Source: Candidatus Parcubacteria bacterium (lineage in GTDB: Bacteria > Patescibacteriota > Minisyncoccia > Phycocordibacterales > UBA918). From it: 57,645 nt of DNA. Position numbers and translations under genes: made by a program. This document shows, piece by piece, positions 433 through 56,393 of this stretch. The notes under the pieces are model-generated. The model made no database searches. It worked only from the letters and a program-made list of their open reading frames with translations, and was not told the origin of the DNA. Position 1 is the stretch's first letter. The number at the start of each line of letters is the position of its first letter. The stretch covers positions 1-57,645 of the forward strand of contig JBDLTL010000001.1 of the NCBI GenBank assembly GCA_039799085.1, in the 5' to 3' direction.

Positions 433-546
433 TTAAAATTCTTAGCGGAGAGAAGAGGATTCGAACCTCCGATACGATTACTCGTATACATCCTTTCCAA
501 GGATGCGCATTCAACCACTCTGCCATCTCTCCGCTAAAAATTTTAA
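433..546. repeat. 14-nt inverted repeat (433-446 / 533-546, 13/14 complementary) bracketing tRNA-Ser(GGA)
   Basis: ttaaaattcttagc versus the reverse complement of gctaaaaattttaa (ttaaaatttttagc). It is contiguous with the 7-bp acceptor stem, giving a potential 21-bp helix. Confidence 0.75.
446..532 (-). tRNA. tRNA-Ser(GGA)
   Basis: Minus strand GGAGAGA-TG-GCAGAGTGGTTGAATGC-G-CATCC-TTGGAAA-GGATG-long variable arm (ATACGA gtaa TCGTAT)-GGAGG-TTCGAAT-CCTCT-TCTCTCC-G. No encoded CCA. Confidence 0.9.
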
Positions 547-586: not shown

Positions 587-731
587 CGGAAAGGGCGGGA
601 TTTGCACCACAAGAGTATTTCCGAAATTATAGTCGATACAAGCTCTCCTTAATTTCTAGGTCAACCCGCGATAGAGTTTCCCCTATGCCGGTTTTCGAAA
701 CCGGTGCTTTCAACCACTCAGCCACCTTTCC
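587..731 (-). tRNA. tRNA-Ser(CGA) interrupted by a 58-nt insert in the T-loop (87 nt without the insert)
   Basis: GGAAAGG-TG-GCTGAGTGGTTGAAAGC-A-CCGGT-TTCGAAA-ACCGG-variable arm-GCGGG-TT-[58 nt]-CAAAT-CCCGC-CCTTTCC-G. All stems are perfect once 605-662 is removed. Confidence 0.75.
605..662 (-). mobile_element. Family-B element copy B1 (58 nt) inserted between T-loop positions 55 and 56 of tRNA-Ser(CGA)
   Basis: Minus strand GACCTAGAAATTAAGGAGAGCTTGTATCGACTATAATTTCGGAAATACTCTTGTGGTG. Homologous to 370-426 and 54902-54955. No target duplication at the junctions. Confidence 0.65.
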
Positions 732-3368: not shown

Positions 3369-3953
3369 CTAAAAACTAACCTTTACTGGCTCTCGCTGCT
3401 CGCTTCCTTCGGGAAGTTCGAAGAATGCCTCTGCCTTAAAGTTGAACATGTTACCAACCACATTTGAAGGAAATGCCTGAAGCGCGATATTGAGATCACG
3501 AACATTACCATTGTAGAAACGACGAGCTGCCTGAATCTTGTTTTCAGTGTCTGAGAGCTCTGTCTGAAGCTGAGCGAAGTTAGTATTTGCTTTGAGATCT
3601 GGGTAGTTTTCTGCGATAGCTATGAGCTTTCCAAGTGCGCCAGTAAGTGCACCTTCAGCTTGCGACATTGCAGCCATTTGCTCTGGAGTAACGGCACCTG
3701 CGTCGATGTGAGTCTGAGTTGCTATCGTACGAGCCTGTGTAACCGCATCAAGTGTCTCACGCTCATGCGCAGCGTAGCCCTTTACTGTCTCAATAAGATT
3801 TGGGATGAGGTCATAGCGACGCTTGAGCTGTACATCAATATCAGCCCATGCTTCCTTAGCGCGCTGAGTAAGTTTTACGAAATTATTGTAAAGGTAGATA
3901 ACATAGAAAACTACGAGAGCAACTACGGCGATGATAATCCAAGTCGTGTTCAT
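3369..3953 (-). CDS. lemA: LemA family protein
   Basis: 194 aa with an N-terminal TM helix, then YNNFV.L...EAWADIDVQLKRRYDLIPNL, a typical LemA sequence. Confidence 0.9.
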   Translation of the reverse strand: MNTTWIIIAVVALVVFYVIYLYNNFVKLTQRAKEAWADIDVQLKRRYDLIPNLIETVKGYAAHERETLDAVTQARTIATQTHIDAGAVTPEQMAAMSQAEGALTGALGKLIAIAENYPDLKANTNFAQLQTELSDTENKIQAARRFYNGNVRDLNIALQAFPSNVVGNMFNFKAEAFFELPEGSEQREPVKVSF

Positions 3954-4043
3954 GATTGCAATACTTATTGTAATGACAAAATTATACCACGATTTCTGAA
4001 TTTCAAGCGCCCTCTCTTAGTGAAGGTGTCCTGAACTTTAATA

Positions 4044-4761: not shown

Positions 4762-4792
4762 GAAAGAGCGGCGCCTTCGGCGCCGCTCTTTC
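4762..4792 (-). terminator. Terminator of groEL
   Basis: gaaagagcggcgcc / ttcg / gcgccgctctttc, 20 nt beyond the groEL stop. Confidence 0.8.
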
Positions 4793-4812: not shown

Positions 4813-6462
4813 CTAATACATTCCTCCCATGCCACCCATACCCGACATGTCAGGCATGACAGACTTTCCTTCCTCTGGTTCATCAGCAATCGCTGCCTCT
4901 GTCGTGAGGAGAATCGCCGCAGCTGAGACTGCGTGCTGTACACCTGAGCGCTCCACCTTCACTGGGTCGATGATACCGGCCTTTATCATATCGTCTACCA
5001 TCTCACCCTTCGCAGCATCGTAGCCAGCATTACCACCAGCTTGCTTCACCTTCTCAACAATCACCGCACCATCGTGCTTACCGGTATTGTCCGCGATTTG
5101 CTTAAGTGGTACTTCAAGTGCCTTAAGCACAATATTGTATCCAATCATCTCTTCGCGTGAGAGCTCTTTGTTTTCGATATTCTTCTCCACGATTCCCGCA
5201 GCGCGAGCAAGTGATGTTCCGCCACCTGGCACAATACCTTCATCAATCGCTGCCTTCGTAGCGTTTACCGCATCTTCGATTTTAAGCTTGAGGTACTTCA
5301 TTTCAGTCTCAGTGGCGGCACCTACTCGAATGACAGCTACACCGCCAGTAAGCTTAGCGATACGCTCCTCGAGTTTTTCTTTATCAAACTTCGAAGATGT
5401 TCCTTCAAGCTGTGCTTTAAGTGCAATCACGCGCTCTTCGACAGCCGACTTTTCGCCAGCGCCACCAACAATAGTTGTCGTATCTTTGGTTGATACCACT
5501 CGGTCAGCATGTCCTAGTTGCGCAAGCTCAACTGTTTCGAGCTTGTAGCCAAGGTCGTCACTAATCACCTGTGCACCGGTTGTCACCGCGATATCGGTAA
5601 GCATTTCCTTCTTACGGTCACCATAGCCTGGAGCCTTGATAGCAAGCACTGAGAATCCGCCCTTGAGCTTATTAACCACAAAGGTCGTGAGGGCTTCACC
5701 TTCAACTTCGTCTGCAATAATTACTAGCTCCTTCTTACCTGACTGCGCGATTTTCTCGAGGAGTGGAAGGATCTCTTGTACTGACGAAATCTTCTTGTCA
5801 GTAATCAGAAGCTGGGCATTTTTGTACTCTGCTTCCATACGCTCCGGGTTGGTCACCATGTACGGCGACACGTAGCCCTTATCGAACTGCATGCCTTCGG
5901 TGAGCTCCGTTTCGATACCAAATGACTGTGATTCCTCTACTGTCACCACACCGTCCTTACCGACCTTGTCGATAGTCTCGGCAATCTTCTCACCAAGCTC
6001 AGCGTCTTCTGCAGAAATAGTCGCAACCTGCTTAATCTCTTCAACGGAAGAAATCTTGGTAGCCATCTCCTTGAGGGCATCTACCACATCCTTAGCAGCG
6101 TGCTCCATACCATTGCGCACCGCCATTGCGTTGATACCCATAGTCGTCTGACGGAGTCCTTCGTTTACAAGTGCCTGAGTAAGCACCGTCGCAGTAGTCG
6201 TACCATCTCCAGCTACTTCGTTGGTCTTGGTCGCTACTTCCTTGATGATTTCAGCGCCCATGTTCTCGAACTTATCTTTGAGGACAATTTCCTTTGCAAT
6301 CGAGACACCATCATTCGTAATAGTTGGACCACCAAAGCCCTTGTCGAGGATGACATTGCGACCACGCGGACCGAGTGTTACCTTCACAGCATTTGCGACC
6401 GTATCAACTCCTTTCTGCAGCTTCTTTTTTACTTCCTCTCCGTAAATTACTTGTTTTGCCAT
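4813..6462 (-). CDS. groL: Chaperonin GroEL
   Basis: 549 aa: [31 protein letters not shown]..., with a C-terminal [10 protein letters not shown] tail. Confidence 0.98.
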
Positions 6463-23242: not shown

Positions 23243-23653
23243 CTAAATGAAGGTGTGTCCACCGAAGGTGCGTTGGATGGCCAAGGCTTCGAGATGGTTC
23301 TGGGAAACATCTTTCCGAAGTAGGCCCGGCATCATTCCTTCGGTGAGAACGAGCTCACCAGGAACTCCCCGATGATCCTCAACCCAGAACGTGACTGGAT
23401 CGGGACCAATCCTGACCATGATATACAAAGAAACAAGCTCTCGACGACACATCATAGTTACACCGCCGGAAGAAAAGAAGGCTCGGTAACCACGCGAATG
23501 GATGTGCGGCACGCGAATCATGAGACTCTGCCAGTTCTGGCCGAAGCGCCAGATAATCGGCCACCGCTTCGAGATAGCCTTTGGGTCGCCATCCAAGGTG
23601 ACGGCACCTTGCTTCGGAGGCTCCACATCGACATTTTTCCACCACATACCCAT
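23243..23653 (-). CDS. Hypothetical W/R-rich protein, paralogue 1 of 2
   Basis: AAGGAG lies 7 nt upstream of ATG 23653. ISKRWPIIWRFGQNW...RGYRAFF...VRIGPDPVTFWVE aligns with the 23728-24135 product. No known domain recognised. Confidence 0.65.
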   Translation of the reverse strand: MGMWWKNVDVEPPKQGAVTLDGDPKAISKRWPIIWRFGQNWQSLMIRVPHIHSRGYRAFFSSGGVTMMCRRELVSLYIMVRIGPDPVTFWVEDHRGVPGELVLTEGMMPGLLRKDVSQNHLEALAIQRTFGGHTFI

Positions 23654-23690
23654 CAAACTTCTCCTTCAATAGAAAGTGCATTCAAATTTT

Positions 23691-23727: not shown

Positions 23728-24135
23728 TTAAATCTTTGTGAAAGTGAAGCCTTTGGGGAAAAATTTAAGTTGAGCCTCGTTTCGCTTCTTGGTGACGAGC
23801 GGACCCCCCTTCTTGGTACCACTGTATGTCAGCTGAAGCGGTTCGTGTGTGCGGGTTTCAGCCCAAAAATATGTCTTCTGTGGACCAACACGAACAGAGA
23901 CAAACTCAGTGTGAATAAGCTGATGGTAGCGCACTATTCGCCTACCTTCTACATAGAAATATAGGTAATATCCTCGCCTAGGTGATGCCATGCCGACCAC
24001 CCGCAAAAGATACCGATACTGTCCCAATCGCCACAGTAACGGCCATCGCCTCGAGATCGTTCCGTGCACCTCTTGCAACACAAGGGCGTGCGCAGGAACG
24101 CGTCTATATCGCATTACTGGCCAAAACATTCCCAT
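23728..24135 (-). CDS. Hypothetical W/R-rich protein, paralogue 2 of 2
   Basis: ISRRWPLLWRLGQYR...RGYYLYF...VRVGPQKTYFWAE. Roughly one-third identical to paralogue 1 by hand alignment. Confidence 0.65.
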   Translation of the reverse strand: MGMFWPVMRYRRVPAHALVLQEVHGTISRRWPLLWRLGQYRYLLRVVGMASPRRGYYLYFYVEGRRIVRYHQLIHTEFVSVRVGPQKTYFWAETRTHEPLQLTYSGTKKGGPLVTKKRNEAQLKFFPKGFTFTKI

Positions 24136-24201: not shown

Positions 24202-24903
24202 CTAAAACTCAACCGCATTTAAAAAGCTTGCCGGTGCAAGGTGCTGTTTCCACTTTTCATAGAGAGCTGTGGTAGCAAGAACATCATCGATGTTGTGTGA
24301 GATAAGTTCAGCGAACCTCCCGGCGGCGTATAGTTCCGCAACCTGACTTCCATCCACCTCTCCTTTCTGACTCTCAATACCATAGGCTCGAAGCAAGAGG
24401 TGAAGCGACGGACGTTTACTCATTGCTCCATACATAGTAAGTTCATCCATCAAATCAACGTGGTAGGGCAAGAATTGCTTCGTGAGATACCGATTCTGTT
24501 GGAATGTCTGAGCTGGACGAATACCGTGCACCACCGAACGGTGAAGCAAGAACGGCACATCAAAGGCTCGACCATTGAAGGTAACAAACACATCATAACT
24601 CTGCACACCGTCCCAAAAATCTTCGAGAGTCTCTTTTTCTGTACGTTTCTTTATAACAAAATCACCTATACGAGACTCCACTTGCTTTTCATCTGCAACA
24701 GAGTAAACGACACCTTGTCGTCGCTCGATATCAAAAAGCGTAATACTTACTATACTTCCCGTGAGCGGAGAAAGTCCCAACTGTGATTTCACTTCATCCT
24801 CGCTTGCGCCTCTGGCACTTCTAAGCAACTGGGATTTTGTGTAAGCGTCAAAAGAATCCCACGGGTCGGGAATCGTTTCAATATCAAAGACGAGTGTGGC
24901 CAT
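24202..24903 (-). CDS. RNase H-fold 3'-5' exonuclease (DnaQ/PolB-exonuclease-like)
   Basis: LVFDIETIPD (ExoI), VTFNGRAFDVPFL (ExoII), and a distal H....D (ISHNIDDV) ExoIII-like block. Confidence 0.75.
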   Translation of the reverse strand: MATLVFDIETIPDPWDSFDAYTKSQLLRSARGASEDEVKSQLGLSPLTGSIVSITLFDIERRQGVVYSVADEKQVESRIGDFVIKKRTEKETLEDFWDGVQSYDVFVTFNGRAFDVPFLLHRSVVHGIRPAQTFQQNRYLTKQFLPYHVDLMDELTMYGAMSKRPSLHLLLRAYGIESQKGEVDGSQVAELYAAGRFAELISHNIDDVLATTALYEKWKQHLAPASFLNAVEF

Positions 24904-39917: not shown

Positions 39918-40004
39918 ACTGTAAGTATACCAAAAAGTTCCTCATCCCCGCCTCAACATCGATAAACACAGAAAAGCGCCATGAAGGCGCTTTTCTCTGG
40001 TTTG

Positions 40005-40150
40005 CTGCCCGACAAGGACTCGGTCACGAATCACTAAGTATATTTATTCGCTTCGCTCTAAATCTACCAAGTGTTCTCGACCCCGGCTCGCTGTTCGTCG
40101 CTCTAGGAAAGGAGCGACTCACAACGCTCCGCCTTTCTCGTCCTTTGTCA
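40005..40150 (-). repeat. Family-A repeat copy E2, including an 18-nt copy of the tRNA-Gln 3' end (40005-40022)
   Basis: ctgcccgacaaggactcg is 18/18 identical to 41160-41177. It is followed by gtcacgaatcactaagtatattt..., homologous to 40980 onward. Confidence 0.7.
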
Positions 40151-40156
40151 GATTGG

Positions 40157-40202
40157 GCGAGCAAAAGAAAAACACCCTCAAGGGTGCTTTTCTTTTGCTC
40201 GC
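40157..40202. repeat. Long hairpin with about 20 bp of pairing
   Basis: gcgagcaaaagaaaaacaccct / caa / gggtgcttttcttttgctcgc. Confidence 0.6.
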
Positions 40203-40296
40203 TGGCTGTATGGAATGAAGTTAGAACTTTTTTAAATGAAAAAGCCGCCGTTCCCTTTCGGTACTAGGCGGCTACTGAGACACTAAAGGGCGTTGA

Positions 40297-40893
40297 TCAT
40301 TTGGGTGCCTTCTCACCCATGAAGCGACGGCCGACCAGTTGACTATGCAGATTTTCCAGAATCTCCACACCTACTGATGATACGCCCTTGAGCGAAAGGT
40401 GCGGATTGTCCTTATCTCGTTGCACAGGGCTCGTCTCGAGAAATTTTCGCAGAGCATTGTATGCTTCTGTTTCGAGAAAACCCTGCTGGTCTGCCCCGTT
40501 TTCTTGAAGAGCAAAGTAGGGTCGGATTTCACCGAGAAGTTCCTTGAAGTCAGAATAGCCCTCCAACGCCCGAAACGGGTCTTCGATGTCGACCTCATCC
40601 ATCAAGGATTTTTCAAGAACCGCAATTCCGGTAAGCAGTGATGCGAGACTCGAGAAGTCAATATAGACCTTTCTAGGTGCAAACACGCAGATTAAGTCTG
40701 AAACTCGTCCGAGGGCGATCGCGGCCTGGCCTGCTTCGATAAGACGATAGTAGGTCGGCGAAACTCCTAGCGATTGAGCCATATACTCAGTTGAGAGTTT
40801 TACCGAATTTCTTCTTAGGCGCAGATAAGCACCGAGGAACTTCTGGAGCGGGTTTAGGGCTCCGTTCGGAGCATGTACTCTATTTCTTCCCAT
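40297..40893 (-). CDS. XRE-family helix-turn-helix protein with an unknown C-terminal domain
   Basis: LRLRRNSVKLSTEYMAQSLGVSPTYYRLIEAGQ is an HTH_XRE pattern. It has its own terminator (agccgcctagtaccgaaagggaacggcggcttttt on the minus strand) just after the stop. Confidence 0.8.
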   Translation of the reverse strand: MGRNRVHAPNGALNPLQKFLGAYLRLRRNSVKLSTEYMAQSLGVSPTYYRLIEAGQAAIALGRVSDLICVFAPRKVYIDFSSLASLLTGIAVLEKSLMDEVDIEDPFRALEGYSDFKELLGEIRPYFALQENGADQQGFLETEAYNALRKFLETSPVQRDKDNPHLSLKGVSSVGVEILENLHSQLVGRRFMGEKAPK

Positions 40894-40961
40894 TGTTTTT
40901 CCCCTTCAGGAATAATCTTCTATAAGGAGAATAGAATGAAAATAGGGTATTGTCAAATATA

Positions 40962-41113
40962 CTGCCCGACAGGGACTCGGTCACGAATCACTAAGTATAT
41001 TTGTTCACTACGTTCCAAATCTACTAAGTGTTCTCGACCCAGACTCGCCGACAAGCCCTCGCTACGCTCGTCTTGTATACCGGCTCCGTCTTTCGAGTCC
41101 CTGTCCGGCTAGC
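40962..41113 (-). repeat. Family-A repeat copy E1, bounded by a direct (40962-40979) and an inverted (41094-41113) copy of the tRNA-Gln 3' end
   Basis: ctgcccgacagggactcg is 17/18 identical to the tRNA end. cgagtccctgtccggctagc on the same strand is its near reverse complement. The core is homologous to E2, E3 and E4. Confidence 0.7.
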
Positions 41114-41122
41114 AACAGCAAA

Positions 41123-41150
41123 GGCCGCAGATGTATACACATCTGCGGCC
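41123..41150 (-). terminator. Terminator downstream of tRNA-Gln
   Basis: ggccgcagatgt / atac / acatctgcggcc. On the minus strand it is followed by tttgctgtt. Confidence 0.75.
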
Positions 41151-41159
41151 TGCTGATTG

Positions 41160-41230
41160 CTGCCCGACAAGGACTCGAACCTCGATAGACGGTACCAGAA
41201 ACCGTAGTCCTACCATTAGACGATCGGGCA
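41160..41230 (-). tRNA. tRNA-Gln(CTG)
   Basis: TGCCCGA-TC-GTCTAATGGTAGGAC-T-ACGGT-TTCTGGT-ACCGT-CTAT-CGAGG-TTCGAGT-CCTTG-TCGGGCA-G. The U1-A72 pair is typical of bacterial tRNA-Gln. Confidence 0.92.
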
Positions 41231-41234
41231 ATAT

Positions 41235-41372
41235 TTGATTGTGCATTTACCCGAATCGGATAATGGGAGGACGGGAGTCCTCCTGCCAAGCGAGCGAGGG
41301 TCGCGGAAATGTTTACATTTCCATGACCGAGCGAGTGCAGGCAGAAAGATTTGGACCTGTTCCAAATCTTGG
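41235..41372 (-). repeat. 138-nt hairpin-rich element (D) bounded by a perfect 21-bp direct repeat (41214-41234 / 41373-41393) of the tRNA-Gln 5' end
   Basis: cattagacgatcgggcaatat occurs twice. The interior has three clean hairpins (aagatttgg/ccaaatctt, ggaaatg/catttcc, ggaggac/gtcctcc). Confidence 0.7.
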
Positions 41373-41478
41373 CATTAGACGATCGGGCAATATGTTGGGG
41401 CGACATTGCGAAGCTTTGTCGCCCAGTGGCAGTATAGTGCCAGAAACTAGAAAACTTTCAAGTACTCCTCTCCCCTCC

Positions 41479-43143: not shown

Positions 43144-43175
43144 AAAAGAGCGGCGCCGTAGGCGCCGCTCTTTTT
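43144..43175 (-). terminator. Terminator
   Basis: aaaagagcggcgcc / gta / ggcgccgctctttt. Confidence 0.85.
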
Positions 43176-54802: not shown

Positions 54803-54972
54803 ATGGGACTTGGTCACAAGTCACTCCTTTCAGTCGTGCTCGCGACCCCACCTCGCCGACAAGCCCTCGCTTCGTTCGTCTTGTGTACCGGCTCCGGCTT
54901 TGACCTAATTTTCAAGGAGTGAAACGACTATGAAAATGGAAATGCTCTTGTAGTGCAAGTCCCATCTCCAAC
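54803..54972. mobile_element. Composite: T-arm fragment (54803-54812), family-A copy E3 (54813-54901), nested family-B copy B3 (54902-54955), inverted tRNA-Leu 3'-end copy (54956-54972)
   Basis: atgggacttg and caagtcccat(ctccaac) are inverted and match the T-arm/acceptor of tRNA-Leu(CAA) at 55021-55046. B3 sits precisely at the junction that is uninterrupted in copy E1 (41093/41094). Confidence 0.65.
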
Positions 54973-54984
54973 TACAAAATACAA

Positions 54985-55012
54985 CGACCGCAAACTTGGC
55001 AGTTTGCGGTCG
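54985..55012 (-). terminator. Terminator downstream of tRNA-Leu
   Basis: cgaccgcaaact / tggc / agtttgcggtcg, with T-runs on both sides. Confidence 0.75.
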
Positions 55013-55020
55013 GTATTTTG

Positions 55021-55101
55021 TGCTGGAGATGGGACTTGAACCCATAAGCCTTGCGGCATTCGATTTTGAGTCGAACGTGTATACCATTCCACCACTCCAG
55101 C
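55021..55101 (-). tRNA. tRNA-Leu(CAA)
   Basis: GCTGGAG-TG-GTGGAATGGTATACAC-G-TTCGA-CTCAAAA-TCGAA-variable arm-ATGGG-TTCAAGT-CCCAT-CTCCAGC-A. Confidence 0.9.
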
Positions 55102-55202
55102 GAATGCACATGAGTGTAGCAAATAATATCACTTACATCTAGTTTTGCGCCCGCAGTGCAAAGCACTGCGGGCGCATCAGTTCTATATGCTACACTTTTG
55201 GC

Positions 55203-56239: not shown

Positions 56240-56247
56240 CGAGTATC

Positions 56248-56274
56248 AAAAACAACCCATGTAGGGTTGTTTTT
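56248..56274 (+). terminator. Terminator after tRNA-Trp
   Basis: aaaaacaaccc / atgta / gggttgttttt. Confidence 0.8.
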
Positions 56275-56280
56275 GTTTGT

Positions 56281-56383
56281 GGGAGCAAGGGCTTGTCGGC
56301 GAGCTGAGGTCGAGGGTACTTAGAAAAATATGAGCGAAACGAAATATTTTACCTAGTAGCTCGTGACTGAATCCTCGTGGGCC
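56281..56383 (+). repeat. Family-A repeat copy E4 (left-truncated) ending in a 15-nt direct repeat of the tRNA-Trp 3' end (56369-56383 = 56223-56237)
   Basis: gggcttgtcggcgag..ggtcgag..acttag....cgtgac is the reverse-complement orientation of the E1-E3 core. It is followed by gaatcctcgtgggcc. Confidence 0.7.
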
Positions 56384-56393
56384 AGCAAAAATA

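Follow-up and report, generated by a model that had tools for sequence, protein, structure and literature searches.

Gene-less, folded modules carrying direct and inverted copies of the tRNA 3' end behind tRNA genes of a Candidatus Parcubacteria bacterium

The tRNA-Gln gene and its repeated 3' end

The 57,645-nt stretch of DNA from a Candidatus Parcubacteria bacterium that was analysed here (positions 1 to 57,645 of contig JBDLTL010000001.1, assembly GCA_039799085.1; hereafter, the window) possesses a tRNA-Gln(CTG) gene on its minus strand at 41159/41160–41230 (ARAGORN; Rfam tRNA, 53.8 bits), behind which copies of the tRNA 3' end alternate with short inserts designated as family A. Open reading frames (ORFs) of the window correspond to NCBI RL538_50 and RL538_51. 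A preliminary description of the locus, made from the letters of the sequence, had claimed that an 18-mer of the tRNA 3' end is present in three direct copies and that both extra copies are joined to family A at the same nucleotide. Both claims were borne out. The 18-mer CTGCCCGACAAGGACTCG, the reverse complement of C56–G73 of tRNA-Gln, is found at 40005–40022 (18/18), 40962–40979 (17/18) and 41160–41177 (18/18, inside the tRNA-Gln gene), while 0.03 copies are expected by chance, and three copies were reached in 0 of 100 shuffles. On the plus strand, GTCACGAATCACTAAGTATATTT directly follows both extra copies, with 23 of 23 positions identical in each; read in the sense of the tRNA, the junction of both is ..GTGAC|C56. 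The 87-nt blocks that start at the extra copies (40005–40091 and 40962–41048) are 90% identical and span the adjoining tRNA-end copy into the P4 end of the core described below. Chance origin of the repeats is ruled out by the expectation, the shuffles and the common 23-nt flank.

The same description reported an inverted copy of the tRNA segment in the first insert, E1, and we confirmed it at 41094–41113 (16 nt, 94% complementarity). What had been noted for E1 alone is a general rule, as every intact unit carries such an inverted copy, and the duplicated block extends to C74 in most members of family A. The claim that family B, a 58-nt hairpin found in a tRNA-Ser gene of the window, is joined at the same T-loop position (C56) also holds.

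Proceeding downstream, the locus consists of tRNA-Gln, the intact E1, a repeat, a cassette with a helix-turn-helix (HTH) gene, a decayed repeat, the degenerate E2, a further repeat and a terminator. The second unit of approximately 940 bp, previously taken as a single one, is thus a composite of the HTH cassette, the decayed repeat and a degenerate A-type module. In the following list, X denotes the 3' segment of the tRNA, X' its inverted (antisense) copy and P2–P4 the helices of the core; loci in other genomes and metagenomes are designated by L and a number.

41160..41230, minus strand: intact tRNA-Gln(CTG), identical at 71/71 positions to the tRNA-Gln genes of L170 and L171; nt 56–73 (41160–41177) are the proximal copy of X
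41114..41159, minus strand: E1 part 1, trailer, GC-rich hairpin and complementary trailer (t-HP-t'), with a terminator-like site of 13 pairs at 41151–41122
41094..41113, minus strand: E1 part 2, X' (GCTAGCCGGACAGGGACTCG), antisense to tRNA nt 56–74 with one extra A; inverted repeats I1 and I6
41038..41093, minus strand: E1 part 3, junction AAAG followed by P2a, P2b and P3 (AAAGACGGAGCCGGTATACAAGACGAGCGTAGCGAGGGCTTGTCGGCGAGTCTGGG); nhmmer E = 1e-22
40980..41037, minus strand: E1 part 4, the long hairpin P4 of the minimum free energy (MFE) fold, ending in ..GATTCGTGAC and joined to C56 of the next copy
40962..40979, minus strand: middle direct copy of tRNA-Gln nt 56–73 (CGAGTCCCTGTCGGGCAG), with C63 in place of T63
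40228..40961, minus strand: HTH gene cassette with a promoter-like site (40956–40928), an ORF (40297–40893) and a terminator hairpin
40201..40227, minus strand: decayed repeat resembling a tRNA 3' end (GTTCTAACTTCATTCCATACAGCCAGC), the right repeat of the HTH cassette
40023..40202, minus strand: E2, a degenerate A-type module with a hairpin (40157–40202), a decayed X' (40137–40156) and a core (40023–40136)
40005..40022, minus strand: distal direct copy of tRNA-Gln nt 56–73, matching at 18/18 positions, or 21/21 with CAA
39964..40004, minus strand: terminator hairpin past the last copy, with a terminator-like site at 39996–39970; inverted repeat I5

E1 comprises 198 nt, from 41159 down to 40962, and forms one complete module, the only intact family A copy in the window; E2 and the copies behind tRNA-Leu and tRNA-Trp (see below) are broken. 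Its hairpin is a component of the module, not of the host, because hairpins of the same type are found in units behind tRNAs for Glu, His and Arg; likewise, P4 of the E1 type occurs behind tRNAs for Phe, Glu, Ser and Val. The C63 of the middle copy matches a G in X' of E1 and also the T stem of the decayed tRNA-Gln gene of L172. In E2, the inverted repeat still reaches 95% over 22 nt; P2 and P3 of its core are altered, P4 is close to that of E1, and the match to the A core is marginal (nhmmer E = 1.2). The outermost copy of the tRNA end remains identical to tRNA-Gln at 18 of 18 positions, whereas the inner pseudo-copy is heavily decayed.

Family A in other genomes and metagenomes

A wider search for the A core recovered approximately 40 non-redundant copies behind many tRNAs, namely at least 16 tRNA species, in metagenome-assembled genomes (MAGs) of Patescibacteria and in groundwater metagenomes, the usual distance from the tRNA being 78–80 nt. 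In a 16-mer scan of species-representative genomes, 118 of 120 matches were chance matches in unrelated phyla, and the genuine ones were L007 and L080; a longer degenerate pattern gave 43 metagenome loci. The carriers of the core are therefore these 43 metagenome loci and two Patescibacteria MAGs. The bearing tRNAs are those for Leu (CAA, TAA, TAG, CAG), Gln (CTG, TTG), Phe, Gly (GCC, CCC), Tyr, Glu, Trp, Ser (GGA, GCT, TGA), Arg (TCT, GCG) and His. Among the 49 pattern matches listed, 33 units have an upstream tRNA on the same strand (ARAGORN), and in 27 of these the core motif begins 78–83 nt past the tRNA 3' end. At a tRNA-Val gene, the A unit is 272 nt away, with a unit of another core family in between.

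Each unit carries an inverted and a direct copy of the end of its own tRNA, and the order of parts is constant. In the sense of the tRNA, C56–N73–C74 of the tRNA is followed by a trailer starting with CAAA, a GC-rich hairpin and a complementary trailer ending in TTTG; then come X' (antisense to nt 56–74), AAAG with P2a/P2b/P3, and a P4 hairpin that begins with GGGTCG.. and ends in ..(C/G)TGAC; finally, the direct copy of nt 56–74 leads into the locus's own downstream sequence, usually a terminator. Complete modules measure approximately 170–210 nt and encode no protein. Hairpin and P4 types are common to units at different tRNAs, the E1-type hairpin for instance also standing behind Glu, His and Arg tRNAs; these parts are therefore owned by the module, and it is X' and X that vary with the tRNA. 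Tandem arrays, of one family or of different ones, are found at L149, L141, L124, L137 and L080. On contigs that carry units, the remaining tRNAs lack any copy. The four A copies within the 57-kb window are 80–90% alike. Family A is one of several related families of insertion modules.

At least three further core families (examples at L124, L137, L158, L147, the tRNA-Arg of L160, the tRNA-Trp of L126, and L122) have the layout X'-AAAG..GGGTCG..P4..GAC|X or a variant of it. Among them are AAAAGAGCGAGTATATCGC.. and a 'C type' that ends in ..GTACTG....TGTAAG and joins the tRNA copy at slightly shifted positions of the T arm.

A covarying three-way junction formed by the sense strand

The RNAalifold consensus of 22 units is a three-way junction made of P1 (X' paired with X), P2–P3 and P4, with compensatory changes in 24 of 38 pairs. 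For the core helices without P1, 97.4% of the positions are paired, compared with 77.9% in column shuffles, and doubly changed cells number 67 as opposed to 16.9; when the partners were slid as a control, 23–42% were paired. All seven pairs of P4 show compensatory changes. P2a alternates among GAC/GTC, ACC/GGT, AGC/GCT and GTC/GAC, and neither P2a nor P2b has any one-sided change.

The fold is also strand-specific. E1 together with the tRNA end reaches -111.5 kcal/mol on the sense strand (z = -9.5) and -93.3 kcal/mol on the other strand. The sense strand was the more stable one in 22 of 22 modules, by a mean margin of 14.9 kcal/mol, and these modules contain 106 G.U pairs in the sense and 35 in the antisense orientation. 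Because greater sense-strand stability is common to all 22, the relevant structure is formed by the sense strand, either as RNA or as single-stranded DNA (ssDNA). Tandem G.A-rich motifs and GNA loops are present in the conserved core.

Two identities suggested by parts of the core were rejected. An internal ctcgccgacaagccctcg, previously said to occur in all A copies, is present in E1 and in the tRNA-Leu and tRNA-Trp copies and missing from E2. Its proposed identity as a fossil tRNA-Gln end does not stand: it is the invariant 3' strand of P2b/P3 in units at many tRNAs, unchanged behind Leu, Phe, Gly, Glu, Arg, Ser, Trp and other tRNAs, and it pairs within P2b/P3. A hammerhead or other known ribozyme was likewise dismissed, as there is no Rfam match; as for the hammerhead core, CGA and TCG are Watson-Crick paired in the junction, and CUGANGA does not occur. 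When the modules were compared with Rfam 15 (ribozymes, tmRNA, tRNA-like RNAs and large ornate RNAs included), nothing besides tRNA matched at the gathering score, and matches at E <= 5 were at the level of chance.

The antisense arm X'

The 3' strand of the X'/X helix consists of the 3' part of the T loop, the T-stem strand, the acceptor strand and N73–C74 of the tRNA. Judged by its sequence, the helix thus appears to reproduce the acceptor/T-arm stack, extended by 5 bp into the junction. At informative wobble positions, X' follows the complement of the tRNA 3' strand at 14, the tRNA 5' strand at none and neither strand at three, which rejects an origin of X' from the tRNA's own 5' strand (acceptor and T stem; 0 of 17 positions). 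In keeping with this, the tRNA-Leu gene of L139 encodes CCA and its X' is complementary to GCACCA. X' contains an extra base in 20 of 26 units (A in 18), located two to three positions from its outer end, beside the N73/C74 pairs. Given this conserved bulge, X' is not a plain polymerase copy; it is a designed complement. A simple fold-back fill-in as the source of X' or of the distal X is contradicted by the extra base together with the hairpin, which is of the module type and is not the native terminator of the host.

Where the proximal and distal copies of X differ, X' sides with the tRNA copy at 14 sites, most of which are junction bases or lie where the distal copy is truncated; at the internal point substitutions in E1, L125 and L138, it is the distal copy that X' matches. 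The C63 variant found with E1 is present natively in the T stem of the L172 allele. The pattern hints at joint movement of X' and the distal copy, but homologous replacement could produce it as well. The C56 boundary is the inner end of the X'/X helix and need not coincide with the point of crossover; strand exchange may take place at 55|56 or at 74|trailer.

Occupied, empty and replaced sites at orthologous loci

We compared the dnaX-His_Phos-tRNA-Gln locus in closer relatives, in which His_Phos is 78–81% identical. L171 possesses a tRNA-Gln gene identical at 71 of 71 positions with a plain promoter and leader and a native downstream sequence, CCATTGACAGC..; neither E1 nor the HTH cassette nor the module found on the 5' side of the tRNA in the window (described below) is present there. 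In L170, the identical intact tRNA-Gln lies between complementary flanks of approximately 33 nt and is followed by an old tRNA-Gln copy (3827–3996) with two interruptions, one in the anticodon region and one, by a bare core of another family, in the T arm. In L172, the sole tRNA-Gln at the locus is split by three bare cores (1410–1702), located in the D loop (17|18; the family of window positions 41235–41372), in the anticodon loop (family B, inverted) and in the T loop. Its exons are decayed, with a 3-nt deletion and acceptor mismatches, and the gene looks dead. The more distant L164 has tRNA-Gln with an HTH gene directly after it, a decayed copy of the tRNA end and the native CATTGACAGCTAG, and no E1.

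A replacement was observed in L139, whose tRNA-Leu(CAA) and tRNA-Trp are identical to those of the window: there, tRNA-Leu carries a module of a different family and encodes CCA, which the window's gene does not, and the segment with tRNA-Leu(CAA) and its module (window positions 54803–55202) is inverted relative to miaA. With regard to what is expected of an integrase-type element, direct repeats of tRNA segments were found at the Gln, Leu and Trp genes and at approximately 40 other loci, and an empty site was found in L171. We regard the orthologous tRNA-Gln loci, which differ between relatives in the inserts that they carry, as decisive for insertion, turnover and decay.

Search for a partner enzyme and the HTH cassette

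Pfam found no recombinase domain in 14 ORFs of the window, and E1 holds no credible gene; the earlier claim that the units contain no recombinase is thus correct. No integrase or integrase fragment adjoins any unit, and tnpA, tnpB, iscB, IS110 and cas genes were found neither near the units nor among the tested window ORFs. Clustering of ORFs at 48 loci revealed no recurrent neighbour, only spurious ORFs overlapping the units and host genes, and no reverse-transcriptase gene recurs beside the units, which are flanked by the tRNA and unrelated host genes. The A core was not found in IMG/VR (2.9 million viral contigs), in 50,697 phage records or in 72,556 plasmids, and full-text literature searches aimed at the module architecture gave no title or abstract that describes it. 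Family A is apparently an undescribed family of gene-less, tightly folded modules of approximately 200 bases.

The sole gene between the repeats encodes an XRE-type HTH protein of 198 aa (40297–40893; Pfam HTH_31/HTH_3), with a weak match to a PHROG HTH family. It was rejected as a recombinase because Pfam shows the HTH domain alone and the PHROG match is both weak and to HTH; its AlphaFold model (predicted local distance difference test score, 46) is all-helical and unusable. The sequence TATATTTGACAA.. after the middle tRNA-end copy is homologous to the start of the HTH cassettes in L164 and L167, and the right repeat GTTCTAACTTCATTCCATACAGCCAGC is homologous to GTTCGAATAACGTCCCAGACGGCCAGC in L167 and TTCGGATCTCGTCCCAGACTCCCAGC in L164. 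Homologous cassettes are bounded by direct repeats resembling the segment from the T loop to the 3' end in L167 and L169, and in L164 the cassette stands after tRNA-Gln. At L167 (617–1213), the HTH gene lies in a cassette of approximately 750 bp with flanking repeats identical at 29 of 29 positions and no tRNA nearby. At L165/L166, a homologue of the gene is found among genes for N6/N4 methyltransferase, HTH_17, GIY-YIG and CDPS proteins.

Possible origin of the modules

On balance, we lean towards the explanation that family A consists of non-autonomous, trans-mobilised structured modules that have spread into tRNA-gene loops within a clade of Parcubacteria (Patescibacteria/Candidate Phyla Radiation, CPR). 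A single long stem is built from the tRNA 3' end, the hairpin and X', so that the tRNA gene is left whole and acquires a terminator; as the tRNA 3' end is restored by the hairpin X-t-HP-t'-X', insertion is harmless. An enzyme encoded elsewhere, of the tyrosine-recombinase or HUH type and acting on tRNA stem-loops, would insert the modules, and its substrate would be the folded sense strand, as ssDNA or as an RNA copy. The X'/X helix would imitate the acceptor/T-arm helix of the target in the manner of a folded attC or of the attP hairpin of CTX phage, and the displaced or duplicated tRNA 3' end would remain as the observed direct repeat. Long palindromes tend to delete across their base. Such a deletion would leave tRNA(1–55)|core|56–73, which is the state of the tRNA-Ser(CGA) gene with its family B insert, L172 and L170; loss of the palindromic hairpin may thus leave a bare core in the loop and kill the tRNA, as is suggested by tRNA-Ser(CGA)::B and the L172 tRNA-Gln.

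Several points weigh against this explanation. Mobility is inferred solely from the comparison of related genomes. There is no sign of recent bursts, as copies within a genome are 80–90% alike and not near-identical, and this degree of similarity also fits old, vertically inherited and possibly functional RNA modules exchanged by homologous recombination. Modules with an X/X' pair should be specific to one tRNA, yet hairpin and P4 types recur at many tRNAs, which leaves the re-matching of the arms unexplained. The mixed agreement of X' fits either site of crossover and either copy as the one borne by the element. Lastly, the conservation of P3 is partly by construction, given that the retrieval pattern fixed 21 core bases.

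The strongest rival, which we regard as doubtful, is that family A is a host-useful or selfish RNA module co-transcribed as a 3' extension of the tRNA. The X'/X helix, as a mimic of the acceptor/T-arm minihelix, could then be a substrate of RNase P, RNase Z or the CCA-adding enzyme, from which a small RNA might result that is stable and even circular; alternatively, the unit might serve as a terminator or processing cassette. Spread at the DNA level, via recombination or reverse transcription, would be secondary. The sense-strand bias in 22 of 22 modules with its excess of G.U pairs, the strong covariation, the constant distance and orientation to the tRNA, and the G.A-rich tandem motifs and GNA loops all suit this possibility. 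The 73/74 boundary lies inside a continuous helix with the conserved bulge 2–3 bp away, the module supplies a terminator and the 5' module a promoter-like site, and copies within a genome are old and diverged. However, three of the four A copies in the window (E2, Leu and Trp) are broken, and many tRNAs, as well as a relative with the same tRNA-Gln, carry none. Families also replace one another at an identical tRNA, the first hairpin is terminator-like and would halt most transcripts before X', the distal copy required for the X'/X helix is often truncated, and no Rfam family matches. A more radical scheme along these lines, which seems unlikely to us, is a protein-free mobile element that lives off tRNA maturation, being transcribed, excised, circularised and re-inserted as a viroid-sized parasite of bacterial tRNA genes. 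The module would be transcribed behind its tRNA; RNase Z, possibly with RNase P, would excise it, as the X'/X helix would exactly mimic the acceptor/T-arm minihelix; the nicked helix (N73–C74|trailer) would be sealed into a three-armed circular RNA of approximately 200 nt, or an equivalent ssDNA circle; and a host or trans-acting enzyme would re-insert the circle at a matching tRNA gene, the specificity for which would be encoded in the 18–19-nt sense/antisense pair.

The preliminary description had favoured scars of integrase-mediated insertion. That the repeats mark insertions at a tRNA gene stands, with L171 empty and L164 lacking E1; that they are an ordinary decayed island does not, since the unit is a discrete, constant module with a covarying fold and an antisense tRNA end at many tRNAs. 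In its full form, with the tRNA as attL, the partial copy as attR, the interior and its integrase deleted in a streamlined genome and the A core as a conserved attP arm, we find this account decidedly unlikely, although direct repeats do span the tRNA loop to the 3' end, the HTH cassette resembles a small cargo element with a homologue among island-type genes at L165/L166, and the tandem accumulation with older copies distal is as in tycheposons, in which repeated insertions stack in this way (10.1101/2020.12.28.424599). Instead of ragged deletion ends, approximately 40 units share one size and architecture, and the core occurs at no fewer than 16 tRNA species with matched arms. Their compensatory changes point to single-strand folding, which is unexpected for double-stranded arms that bind a protein, and neither an integrase or fragment thereof beside any unit nor the core in the viral contigs, phage records and plasmids searched was found. 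Very improbable, in our judgement, are relics or accessory RNAs of guide-RNA-directed transposons (TnpB/IscB omega-RNA, IS110 bridge-RNA or the homing of CRISPR-associated transposons), with the core as the scaffold and the 18–19-nt segment as the guide. The order ..GTGAC|X does resemble that of a scaffold with a guide from the flanking sequence, a T-rich GGTT lies 5' of the target in the tRNA gene, and family B stands at TT|C without duplication, IS200/IS605 elements being known to sit at their target motif in this manner. Nevertheless, tnpA, tnpB, iscB, IS110 and cas are missing from the vicinity of the units and from the tested ORFs of the window, and none of the known omega-RNA and other IS-associated RNA families matched in Rfam. 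Sense and antisense guides would, moreover, be mutually complementary and sequestered in the X'/X helix, and the arms are much longer than IS110 guides.

Comparison with known systems

Genes for tRNAs are classic landing pads of integrases, and the elements that land there are as a rule kilobases in size and encode a recombinase of their own. Anticodon and T loops are said to have been named by Williams in 2002 as the favoured sublocations of integration. Family A resembles tRNA-integrating elements with tyrosine integrases (P4-like islands, integrative and conjugative elements, tycheposons) and their integrase-less derivatives (CIMEs) in that the tRNA is left intact, the direct repeat runs from the loop to the 3' end and units stack in tandem. 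The modules differ from these in being gene-less, with no integrase, and only 170–210 nt long, in their constant covarying structure and internal antisense tRNA end, and in the use of one core at 16 or more tRNA species, with D-loop and 5'-side versions and without occurrence in the viral and plasmid collections.

Folded single-strand att sites are the closest mechanistic analogues. Both integron attC and the attP(+) site of CTX phage, which is used by XerCD, are imperfect palindromes with an extrahelical base and a strand-specific fold, and their recombinase is not encoded in the cassette. The modules are likewise imperfect palindromes with covarying arms, an extrahelical base (20 of 26), folding of one strand (22 of 22), a duplex imitating a double-stranded target and no recombinase within. 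In contrast, their arms copy the end of a host tRNA, follow no GTT/AAC triplet rule and are accompanied by two extra conserved hairpins, and the target is a tRNA gene in place of attI or dif.

Casposons and CRISPR spacer integration generate target duplications of 14–15 bp or of a whole repeat, and some casposons prefer the 3' ends of tRNA genes. The modules share the long duplication at this site; however, neither Cas1 nor terminal inverted repeats of the casposon type are present, and the duplication is accompanied by an inverted copy and a structured core. Disrupted tRNA genes of archaea contain introns at non-canonical positions or are split or permuted, with sequences complementary to an exon by the junction. 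The inserts in D, anticodon and T loops and the complementarity beside the junction are similar here, whereas a complete module leaves the tRNA uninterrupted and the interrupted copies look dead; to our knowledge, the bacterial host has no splicing endonuclease. Unlike in a miniature inverted-repeat transposable element (MITE) or DDE transposon, the inverted pair X'/X is derived from the target and differs with each tRNA, and the duplication is 18–19 nt as opposed to a fixed 2–14 bp. IS200/IS605 elements and TnpB omega-RNA are set apart by the failure to find tnpA or tnpB and by the lack of an Rfam RNA match, and a retron by the absence of a reverse-transcriptase gene adjoining the module. An integrase element, a MITE, an IS200/IS605 derivative, a retron and any Rfam family thus each fail on a defining feature.

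If family A is mobile in trans, the whole element would be a folded piece of approximately 200 nt that matches its tRNA, reconstitutes the end of the tRNA and brings along a terminator or, on the 5' side, a promoter. It would define a type of mobile DNA or RNA in the CPR that is new, based on structure and non-autonomous. It would explain the tRNA fragments and pseudo-tRNAs that litter the tRNA loci of these tiny genomes and mislead tRNA finders (as in the tRNA-Ser missed by ARAGORN), would be a bacterial counterpart to the long-standing proposal that archaeal tRNA genes were fragmented by mobile elements, and would point to an enzyme that recognises tRNA-gene stem-loops or tRNA-like helices with a programmable match of 18–19 nt.

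Other inserts and neighbouring features

Four further inserts in the window are related to the modules described above.

41235..41393, minus strand: mirror-image module on the 5' side of tRNA-Gln; the upstream copy of the leader and tRNA nt 1–17 is at 41373–41393 (21/21)
54803..54901, minus strand: family A unit behind tRNA-Leu(CAA), with a core (54813–54901) and a decayed direct copy CAAGTCCCAT (54803–54812); nhmmer E = 1.6e-17
56241..56386, plus strand: family A unit behind tRNA-Trp, with a core (56280–56368) and a direct copy TGAATCCTCGTGGGCCAG (56369–56386)
605..662, minus strand: family B, a P4-like hairpin of 58 nt in the T loop (55|56) of tRNA-Ser(CGA) (587–731)

The 5' module, which the preliminary description had overlooked, has a structured core of 138 nt (region 41235–41372), an inverted copy Y' at 41245–41265 and a promoter-like site at 41289–41260 (TTGGCA-18-CATTAT). 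Its core family also occupies the tRNA-Gln D loop in L172 and a position upstream of tRNA-Gln in L122, and the module is absent in L171. At the tRNA-Leu genes of L125 and L142, the 5' part of the tRNA is duplicated upstream without the core of the 5' module.

In the tRNA-Leu unit, X' (54956–54975) is parted from the core by a family B insert on the plus strand (54902–54955), and the junction is ..GTGAC|CAAGTCCCAT. The tRNA-Trp unit, with the junction ..GTGAC|TGAATCCTCGTGGGCCAG, has lost X' and the 5' half of P2/P3, which are retained in an intact orthologue in L139. At each of these genes the A core lies on the strand of the tRNA, with the end of that very tRNA attached to it, and a fixed attP sequence cannot account for this.

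The tRNA-Ser(CGA) gene (587–731, minus strand; Rfam, 43 bits) was missed by ARAGORN, its T loop having 63 nt instead of 5. Its exons keep all four stems, and family B sits between T55 and C56. Among the split pseudo-tRNA-Gln genes, family B was found in either orientation. An intact tRNA-Ser(GGA) gene (445–532, minus strand) lies between two fragments, at 224–246 and 547–572, of a different tRNA-Ser gene (a 5' one, GGAAGTGTGGCCGAGCGGTTGAAGGC, and a 3' one, TTTCGAATCCTGTCACTTCCGCC), the acceptor strands of which match each other; the leader and trailer of the intact gene are complementary over 14–16 nt (inverted repeat 423–453/526–556). The design of this gene and of the L170 tRNA-Gln, with flanks of approximately 33 nt, suggests that whole tRNA genes may be delivered as cassettes.

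Beyond the window, three units with a Ser-like arm (L007 1–200, L123 and L163) are preceded by a conserved region of 100 nt (GGTCAAGC..GCTTGACC..GTTCTAACTCGAG..), which is no tRNA and belongs to no Rfam family. At L162 (1188–1437), a group I intron (Rfam, 88.5 bits) occupies the anticodon loop of a tRNA with an A module downstream, and at L080 (approximately 5290–5765) an ORF resembling an HNH endonuclease (..CELCGW..DHVNGDHYDNRIENLRILCPNCH..; read by eye) is located directly upstream of a module-bearing tRNA-Leu(TAA). Within the window, a palindromic, terminator-like sequence of 29 nt (AAAGAGCGGCGCC....GGCGCCGCTCTTT) occurs at 4763–4791 and 43145–43173 (93–97% alike). Two adjacent paralogous ORFs on the minus strand (23243–23656 and 23728–24135) encode proteins of approximately 136 aa with ..RRWP(I/L)(I/L)WR(F/L)GQ.. 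and no Pfam match, and the pair adjoins a gene for a PolB-exonuclease-like protein with an RNase H fold (24202–24903).

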